Positions 63,890 through 64,000 of a stretch of 64,000 nucleotides of DNA are shown in pieces. A model generated the notes under the pieces. It saw nothing but the letters and a program-made list of their open reading frames with translations, was not told the origin of the DNA and ran no database searches. The position numbers were made by a program, and so were the translations under genes. The stretch is from NCBI RefSeq assembly GCF_054482595.1, contig NZ_CM137008.1. One strand, written 5' to 3'. Position 1 is the first letter of the stretch, and the number at the start of each line of letters is the position of its first letter.

Positions 63890-64000
63890 TTAAATAACTT
63901 TCCAGCGGATGGAAAAAAGCTCGGTGATATCCGTTTTTTGCTTCATCCGCTCTTCAAGGGCACTGATGAGTTCATCCCGCTTGTCGGCGATCTCATCTTC
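63890..64000 (-). CDS. 3' end of an upstream gene (C-terminal 36 codons: ...EDEIADKRDELISALEERMKQKTDITELFSIRWKVI*); rest lies beyond the window
   Basis: Minus-strand frame open from the window edge to the TAA at 63890-63892, 20 nt upstream of the Mod-like ATG on the same strand. Translated by hand. Confidence 0.55.
   Translation of the reverse strand, partial: EDEIADKRDELISALEERMKQKTDITELFSIRWKVI

Follow-up and report, generated by a model that had tools for sequence, protein, structure and literature searches.

The truncated reading frame at the edge of the window, by which we mean the whole 64,000-nucleotide stretch of DNA analysed here, is confirmed as the 3′-terminal part of an intact gene for an SNF2 ATPase, its continuity past the edge being taken from identical public genomes. 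This gene, which encodes a protein of 963 amino acids, very probably leads a SNF2–mod–res cassette of the EcoR22I type and belongs to it as an ancillary component, most plausibly as an assisting motor. The gene is already known, being annotated in RefSeq, and its association with restriction–modification (R-M) genes has been noted in the literature.

The part of the gene visible in the window, the end of an SNF2-family (DrmD-like) helicase gene, occupies positions 63890–64000 on the minus strand and consists of 36 codons followed by a TAA stop at 63892–63890. Read from 64000 to 63890, the frame translates as EDEIADKRDELISALEERMKQKTDITELFSIRWKVI*. The sequence-only reading had described a minus-strand frame of 36 residues that runs off the window edge and stops 20 nucleotides before the start of a Mod-like gene, and translation showed all of these coordinates to be correct. 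It had also judged 36 residues too few to identify the product, rightly so; the identity came from the full-length coding sequence in identical genomes. The chance of 36 codons without a stop is approximately (61/64)^36 = 0.18, so the frame is not significant by itself and homology must decide whether it is a gene.

Homology gives a clear answer. Positions 51871–64000 of the window (12,130 nt) are 100% identical to the genome of E. coli strain XH990, in which the frame of the stub continues into an unflagged coding sequence of 963 amino acids annotated as “SNF2-related protein” (WP_021557482.1, L001:11220-14111). The stub corresponds to residues 928–963 of this protein, and the remaining codons lie beyond the window edge. 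In an alignment of 69 family members, the stub retains the conserved positions D929, E930, I931, R935, D936, L938, I939, E943, Q948, L955, F956, I958, R959 and W960, as well as the C-terminal consensus of the family, ...LF[TS]IRW.... The identity to a genome with an intact gene and the conservation of these C-terminal positions together establish the stub as real coding sequence. In the predicted structure, it makes up the end of the second coiled-coil helix and the beta-hairpin that terminates the C-terminal module.

The window DNA is of E. coli chromosomal origin. Across 24 kb, its sequence matches XH990 and at least 11 further genomes without a difference, except for one extra IS2, and these genomes, at least 12 among those listed, annotate an “SNF2-related protein” at the position of the stub with no pseudogene flag. 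That the stub is left over from a gene decayed or truncated in the window strain is, on this evidence, close to negligible in probability. Such decay does occur, as at least one metagenome contig of E. coli carries a split SNF2 allele (601 + 352 aa), and the window does end inside the gene; nevertheless, the perfect identity over 12,130 nt and the unflagged annotations speak against it here. In the contig with the split allele, a further open reading frame follows SNF2 after 20 nt, the distance that separates mod from SNF2 in XH990, and runs off the contig end. The split allele suggests that the SNF2 gene can be lost, which fits an accessory component.

The junction between SNF2 and mod is compact. 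The spacer (63870–63889, minus strand) comprises 20 nt, ttgatttgaaagagaaaata, and is purine-rich, with an AAGAG/GAGA stretch resembling a Shine–Dalgarno sequence; the ATG of mod lies at 63869, 20 nt after the SNF2 stop. A spacer of this length is too short for a terminator or a promoter, and neither a terminator-like nor a promoter-like site was found on the SNF2–mod strand in the region searched (L001 11355 to 15123). From this gap, free of terminator and promoter matches, co-transcription of SNF2, mod and res appears likely. The earlier proposal of an additional operon component upstream of the Mod-like gene is thus borne out by an SNF2 gene on the same strand, with “operon” understood as a gene arrangement. 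The findings that the sequence-only reading had named as contrary to its proposal, a frameshifted fragment or a gene with its own terminator, do not apply, since the coding sequence is intact in the identical genomes and the junction holds no terminator-like site. Tight translational coupling between SNF2 and mod does not seem to be required, because defence genes are often inserted between the two genes elsewhere.

In XH990, the SNF2 coding sequence starts 390 nt after a tRNA-Leu gene that follows ahr/yjgR, and which we take to be leuX from this neighbourhood. The gene order is tRNA-Leu, SNF2, mod, res, a convergent hypothetical gene of 100 aa, a gene for a phosphorothioate-DNA-binding HNH endonuclease, gene remnants, nanM, nanC and fimB. 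Among the 5426 complete E. coli genomes, 157 match the last 1.5 kb of the window, and 17 do so at ≥99% identity. The whole cassette, counted where ≥80% of the sequence from tRNA-Leu to the end of res is covered, was found in 149 E. coli genomes, compared with 150 that carry the junction probe. In effect, about 3% of the complete E. coli genomes have the SNF2–mod–res cassette directly after leuX. P4 uses leuX as its integration site. The XH990 annotation shows neither a P4 integrase nor any other satellite gene from leuX to nanC; a relative of the cassette in V. cholerae adjoins P4-type integrase and AlpA-like genes.

The two genes that follow SNF2 form a Type III R-M pair. The mod gene (60750–63869, minus strand) encodes a Type III-like N6/N4 DNA methyltransferase of 1039 aa, which matches PF01555 (5e-17) and, over its full length, the PADLOC model MTase_III (PDLC03646). 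It carries an N-terminal extension of about 450 aa before a methyltransferase domain at residues ~455–815, and it is related to the Type III Mods of Mbo45V, H. pylori and EcoP15I in the PDB. The res gene (57367–60747, minus strand) begins 2 nt after the end of mod and encodes a Type III-like restriction subunit of 1126 aa, with a ResIII match and a full-length match to the PADLOC model REase_III (PDLC03654). Its SF2 ATPase motifs are GSGKT (179–183), DEGH (280–283) and QxxGRGxR (634–641), and its C-terminal PD-(D/E)xK motif reads FYPD1024F...ID1043PK1045G. The aspartates of this nuclease motif and the residues flanking them are invariant or nearly so among 16 long Res proteins, and canonical Res proteins beside SNF2 relatives carry the usual PD...ExK motif. 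The Res protein has no sequence-level match in the PDB.

A PF01555 Mod adjoined by a Res with an SF2 ATPase and a PD-(D/E)xK nuclease places the pair among Type III R-M systems. EcoP15I and EcoPI share these features, including the adjacency of mod and res. In contrast to canonical Type III systems, which consist of two genes, the cassette described here and most of its relatives are led by a third gene, SNF2. The E. coli proteins are also much longer than the Mods of ~550–700 aa and the Res proteins of ~880–1000 aa found at other SNF2 loci.

[quoted passage not shown] The window cassette is an EcoR22I-type Type III R-M system, likened to it by description and by residue numbers: both are from E. 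coli, both have an SNF2-like, drmD-related helicase beside mod and res, and both Res proteins have D1024 and D1043. The ECOR22 genes are cargo at an integration site of mobile elements, a P4 satellite hotspot, and the window cassette at leuX may be as well. Unlike in ECOR22, satellite genes are missing from the annotation between leuX and nanC in XH990 and, by inference, in the window strain. No paper naming or testing the SNF2–Mod–Res triad was found in the literature, apart from a one-paragraph mention of the helicase in the EcoR22I preprint.

Published experiments on EcoR22I bear directly on the standing of the SNF2 gene. [quoted passage not shown] Additionally, passage through cells carrying only mod and nuclease-dead res made lambda-vir resistant to EcoR22I (bioRxiv 10.1101/2023.04.06.535777). 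As mod and res work without SNF2 in these overexpression assays, the SNF2 gene is an ancillary rather than an essential component.

The last of these experiments also weighs on the idea that the SNF2 ATPase is needed for modification, helping Mod to reach its sites as DDM1 and HELLS help eukaryotic DNA methyltransferases. The position of the SNF2 gene on the Mod side of the cassette would agree with such a role, and class 1 DISARM, type 3 BREX and BREX-related systems likewise pair an SNF2 gene with a methylase gene. Some family members stand beside methylases without a Type III Res, namely at locus L007 and at L080, where the methylase is Type ISP-like. However, mod and nuclease-dead res were sufficient to protect lambda-vir, so phage DNA was methylated without SNF2, which makes this idea very improbable.

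The SNF2 protein itself has the sequence hallmarks of an SNF2 ATPase. Both lobes of the ATPase score well above the Pfam gathering cut-offs: SNF2-rel_dom (PF00176) at residues 42–289 with 127.3 bits against 24.9 (8.5e-37), and Helicase_C (PF00271) at residues 437–544 with 72.6 bits against 23.5 (3.7e-20). The ATPase motifs DEVGLGKT (63–70), DEAH (163–166), TATPLQN (195–201) and QRIGRCHRYGQ (535–545) are all intact, and residues K69, T70, D163, E164, H166, R536, R539 and R542 are invariant in a family alignment of 53 sequences. With both lobes above the gathering scores and motifs I, II, III and VI intact, the protein belongs to the SNF2/Swi2 ATPases. No nuclease or other effector domain was found in it by Pfam or in the model of its C-terminal part.

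Beyond the motor, the protein carries a distinct C-terminal module. The full-length AlphaFold model has a pLDDT of 85.5 and a pTM of 0.80, and the C-terminal 328 residues, modelled on the 69-sequence alignment, reach a pLDDT of 90.3 and a pTM of 0.77. In this model, a long helix is followed by an alpha/beta domain (residues ~681–825), an antiparallel coiled-coil hairpin (833–946) with predicted helices of ~63 and ~47 residues, and a terminal beta-hairpin (949–962). A Foldseek search with the module returned no significant structural match (E = 0.24). As far as the model and alignment indicate, the module is specific to the family, whose members keep it over its full length at identities as low as 35%.

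Among profiles of known defence proteins, the best matches are to DrmD models, that is, PADLOC DrmD (PDLC02619, 3e-198) and NCBIfam DISARM_DrmD_b (NF038318, 666.9 bits against a cut-off of 950). Class 1 DISARM therefore has to be considered, and the notion that the SNF2 protein is its DrmD, with the locus being DISARM and not Type III R-M, draws on these matches and on the placement of the SNF2 gene directly before a large adenine methylase gene. The resemblance is real, as DrmD is the closest match to the core and is likewise described as an ancillary helicase. Nevertheless, the scores remain below the cut-offs for both NF038318 and NF038317 (289.9 bits against 610), which places the protein outside the DrmD equivalogs, and the match is confined to the ATPase core: the NCBIfam alignment covers residues 31–677, the DrmD matches taken together extend over residues 31–729 and so end near 680–730, and the C-terminal ~290 residues, with their different module, stay unmatched. 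In addition, no genes for DrmA, DrmB (DUF1998) or DrmC (PLD) were found in ~11 kb upstream of SNF2 or in ~9 kb downstream of res, and the partner methylase is a Type III-like PF01555 protein, not a PF13659 protein like DrmMI. A DISARM identity is thus extremely unlikely. In class 1 DISARM, deletion of drmD together with drmMI, the two not being separated, nearly abolishes protection against phage Nami (bioRxiv 10.1101/2021.12.28.474362).

Among solved structures, E. coli RapA comes closest, both by sequence (phmmer 3e-36) and by fold (Foldseek 4e-26 over ~1060 columns at 17% identity). RapA (HepA) is also a bacterial Swi2/Snf2 ATPase with alpha/beta domains after the motor, and the two proteins align along nearly their whole length. 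In contrast to RapA, the SNF2 protein has no N-terminal Tudor-like region, as its motor starts from about residue 30, and its coiled-coil module lacks a significant counterpart there; its genomic context is R-M rather than transcription, and the identity between them is only the 17% given above. The NCBIfam RapA model (PRK04914) gives 166.7 bits against a cut-off of 576, and the protein is accordingly not a RapA.

Similar helicases accompany other methylase-based systems. RapA-like SNF2 helicases stand beside N6-adenine methylases in type 3 BREX, as BrxHII, and in the DUF499-centred BREX-related (BR) systems (PMC12839542). These systems differ from the window cassette in their BrxC/DUF499 ATPases, in PglZ and in the N-terminal Tudor domain of the helicase; none of these is present at the window locus, and, as no gene for a DUF499/BrxC-type ATPase or for PglZ was found there, the cassette falls outside BREX and BR.

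The family to which the SNF2 protein belongs is large and widely spread. A scan of 1.8 billion representative proteins, from which the best 150 clusters at 50% identity were listed, yielded at least 150 such clusters, many of them aligned end to end (approximately residues 5–962) at identities down to 35%. Closer relatives come from Enterobacter, Salmonella, Vibrio, Aeromonas, Shewanella, Pseudoalteromonas, Legionella and Desulfurispira. N6_N4_Mtase and ResIII genes follow SNF2 on the same strand in Legionella pneumophila, V. cholerae, Desulfurispira natronophila and a metagenome contig at 43% identity, and no DrmA, DrmB or DrmC gene was found in these four cassettes. A scan of one genome per species gave 80 loci from Proteobacteria, Bacteroidota, Verrucomicrobiota, Planctomycetota, Bacillota, Chloroflexota, Acidobacteriota, Actinomycetota, Spirochaetota, Cloacimonadota and Patescibacteria.

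Linkage to Mod and Res was assessed at 47 informative loci from other taxa, each with at least 7 kb of downstream sequence, whose open reading frames were tested by iterated profile searches. Mod and/or Res lie downstream on the same strand at 42 of the 47 loci, and both are present at 36. With two Pasteurellaceae loci ordered Mod–Res–SNF2, genes of this kind adjoin SNF2 on the same strand at 44 of the 47. These loci come from Proteobacteria, Bacteroidota, Verrucomicrobiota, Planctomycetota, Bacillota, Chloroflexota, Acidobacteriota, Actinomycetota and Spirochaetota, and identity ranges over 35–84%. Most of the remaining loci have an explanation, such as an IS insertion followed by CRISPR-Cas genes (L028), a MotA/ExbB-like gene (L019) or the methylase already mentioned (L080). 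The check proposed by the sequence-only reading, namely co-occurrence with the Mod-like and Res-like genes in other genomes, was therefore strongly positive, both within E. coli and across phyla.

The cassettes fall into two classes. One combines a long Mod (~1000–1130 aa) with a long Res (~1060–1130 aa), as in E. coli, and the other a Mod (~550–700 aa) and a Res (~880–1000 aa) of canonical size. Identity to the E. coli SNF2 protein is mostly 50–84% in cassettes with a long Mod compared with mostly 38–47% in those with a short one, with a few exceptions in both directions. The difference is marked (Mann–Whitney p = 4e-6), the p value overstating independence because the sequences are related. 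Judging from these identities, the SNF2 lineage has largely co-diversified with the class of Mod.

Such linkage matters most for the possibility that the SNF2 gene has an independent, single-gene function and merely lies beside R-M genes, either as a stand-alone defence helicase or as a housekeeping remodeller. Stand-alone SNF2 defence proteins do exist, and HmaA, for instance, combines an SNF2 core with a C-terminal NOV_C domain of the PD-(D/E)xK type (PMC11232893). The sufficiency of mod and res in the EcoR22I assays, the frequent presence of other defence genes between SNF2 and mod, and a few family members without Mod or Res nearby (L028, L073 and L075) would all be compatible with independence. 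Against it stand the same-strand adjacency kept across many phyla, the correspondence between SNF2 lineage and Mod class, the 20-nt gap without a terminator, and the lack of a nuclease or effector domain of the protein’s own. The HmaA profile matches the SNF2 protein only at residues 35–473 (194 bits), and Pfam found no NOV_C domain in it, so the protein is not a member of Hma. An independent function is consequently improbable.

The preferred reading, an ancillary motor within an EcoR22I-type cassette, suggests the following mode of action. Mod would methylate host DNA, and the Mod–Res complex would cut unmodified DNA by means of its SF2 ATPase and C-terminal PD-(D/E)xK nuclease. The SNF2 protein would be an ATP-driven translocase or remodeller of double-stranded DNA that assists Mod–Res on invading DNA. 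It might clear bound proteins or process the DNA after recognition, which could make the defence broader or stronger at native expression. We infer this assisting role from the known activities of SNF2 proteins, from the replacement of SNF2 by helicase–nucleases in some lineages and from the parallel with class 1 DISARM, in which the DrmD helicase gene adjoins that of the DrmMI methylase as SNF2 adjoins mod. Partner proteins probably dock on the C-terminal coiled-coil module, although docking through it is conjecture, the module having no significant structural match.

Replacement of the lead gene can be seen on plasmids and in fused proteins. The N-terminal domain of the long Mod was found on 28 plasmids, and SNF2 is close by on 19 of them. 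On plasmids of Priestia megaterium and Athalassotoga, the long Mod is immediately preceded by a gene of the same size and on the same strand that encodes an unrelated protein, a UvrD helicase fused to a PD-(D/E)xK/Cas4-like nuclease, and a Haloarcula plasmid has a UvrD + PD-(D/E)xK gene as a divergent neighbour of the long Mod. The view that these helicases are divergent SNF2 proteins was rejected, as BLASTP and Pfam assigned all three to the UvrD + PD-(D/E)xK type. Desulfurispira carries both an SNF2 gene and a UvrD–nuclease gene. Additionally, some family members have N-terminal fusions, either to a UvrD helicase with a PD-(D/E)xK nuclease (P0166 and P0186) or to HATPase_c_2 and DUF4325 (P0142). 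The presence of UvrD–nuclease genes in the place of SNF2, together with the fusions of the two, indicates that the slot of the lead gene holds DNA motors of more than one kind.

A bolder, tentative proposal, to which we give limited credence, is that SNF2–Mod–Res forms a distinct and very widespread three-subunit Type III-like class with an exchangeable lead DNA motor (SNF2 or UvrD–PD-(D/E)xK, sometimes fused). If this were true, the motor would alter the enzyme at native expression, whether by active translocation instead of passive sliding, by clearing roadblocks or DNA-mimic inhibitors, or by degrading DNA after the first cut, and the dispensability of SNF2 in the published assays would be an artefact of overexpression. 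SNF2 is kept beside Type III Mod and Res genes across many phyla, with helicase–nucleases as substitutes in some lineages, and E. coli strains with the cassette at leuX offer a tractable setting in which to examine the contribution of an SNF2 remodeller to a restriction enzyme. The outcome would be informative for class 1 DISARM and type 3 BREX as well.

Additional genes often accompany the cassette. Unrelated genes of the defence type often separate SNF2 from mod, or mod from res, and Pfam scans of ten intervening genes identified AAA_21, Bro-N, Fic, AIPR, Schlafen/AlbA_2, M78 with HTH_3, PLD-like and DUF1016/YhcG families, leaving two genes without a match. The idea of a DUF4391 gene between helicase and Mod in such operons received no support and was dropped, as these scans gave other families. 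A small HTH_17 gene abuts the start of SNF2 at 8 of 85 loci, including those of Legionella and V. cholerae, and was rejected as a core component, being confined to these few loci and absent from the E. coli cassette.

Just 3′ of res, the convergent hypothetical open reading frame of 100 aa known from the annotation lies at 57018–57320 on the plus strand. Profile searches with PADLOC, Pfam and NCBIfam gave no family match for it, and its membership in the system is uncertain. Relatives of this frame occupy the same position in V. cholerae, where the protein is alike along its length, and in Shewanella xiamenensis (L010).

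The SNF2-mod-res cassette appears to serve as a landing site at which further defence genes are inserted. Within such cassettes, unrelated genes of defence type are found, encoding proteins with AAA_21, Bro-N, Fic, AIPR, Schlafen/AlbA_2, M78+HTH_3, PLD-like or DUF1016/YhcG domains. Insertions of this kind lie between the SNF2 and mod genes at L004 (16294-17831) and at loci L022, L026, L027, L030, L037, L041, L047 and L048. On the opposite side of the SNF2 gene, in 8 of 85 loci, a gene encoding a 57-61-aa HTH_17 (excisionase/MerR-like) protein ends at the SNF2 start codon or overlaps it, as at L002 (9816-10001), at the V. 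cholerae locus L005 (9835-10008), and also at L022, L031, L049, L060 and L069. E. coli lacks it; where present, it could control transcription of the cassette as an optional element.

On an E. coli metagenome contig (L091, 8001-10892), the SNF2 gene is split into ORFs of 601 and 352 aa, with its position at leuX unchanged. Another ORF begins 20 nt past the split gene, at the position of the mod start in strain XH990, and is cut off by the edge of the contig. The 601-aa form is the representative of a cluster with 217 member sequences, some of which are possibly truncated at contig ends.

The lead position is not always occupied by the SNF2 family. In some cassettes of the long-Mod/long-Res class (Priestia, Athalassotoga), the lead gene encodes instead a fusion of a UvrD helicase with a PD-(D/E)xK/Cas4-like nuclease, while in Haloarcula such a gene is a divergent neighbour. 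These helicase-nuclease genes map to L088 (6052-8958), L090 (6174-8960) and L089 (424-3858), and the same module is joined to the SNF2 family in single proteins, P0166 and P0186.

Members of the SNF2 family are also found in other gene settings. In a Patescibacteria locus (L080, 10001-16397), the SNF2-family gene is followed by no Type III Mod or Res but by a gene for a Type ISP-like methylase of 1101 aa, whose specificity domain is of the Type_ISP_C family; the arrangement resembles a Type ISP enzyme from which the motor has been separated. In Sulfurimonas (L019, 9977-14722), the next gene encodes a 581-aa MotA/ExbB-domain protein reminiscent of ZorA of the Zorya system, with an AAA ATPase and a PcfJ-like protein encoded farther downstream. 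At L007 (6458-13610), the genes preceding a member with 39% identity are not Type III mod and res but encode two methylases (N6_N4_Mtase, MethyltransfD12) and an HNH_2 endonuclease, on a contig that also bears conjugation genes (T4SS coupling protein).

In the leuX island of the window, a hypothetical plus-strand ORF of 100 aa (57018-57320) is convergent with res and matches none of the families of Pfam, PADLOC or NCBIfam. Clear relatives, likewise located after res, occur in V. cholerae (L005, 20021-20323) and Shewanella xiamenensis (L010, 19419-19784), and the ORF may be carried along by the cassette or by the mobile element. About 0.7 kb past res, a plus-strand gene (55833-56705) encodes a phosphorothioated-DNA-binding HNH restriction endonuclease (NCBIfam NF045808, 433 bits; PF13391 HNH_2), followed by remnants of HNH and sialate O-acetylesterase genes. 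This endonuclease is a second restriction function of the island, unrelated to the cassette.

Relative to XH990, the nanC-fimB intergenic region carries a 1329-bp insertion (50542-51870; 1336 bp including the repeated flank), on the upstream side of the switch-recombinase gene fimB, in flanks that are otherwise 100% identical. It encodes ORFs of 136 and 301 aa, which look like InsC and InsD of IS2.
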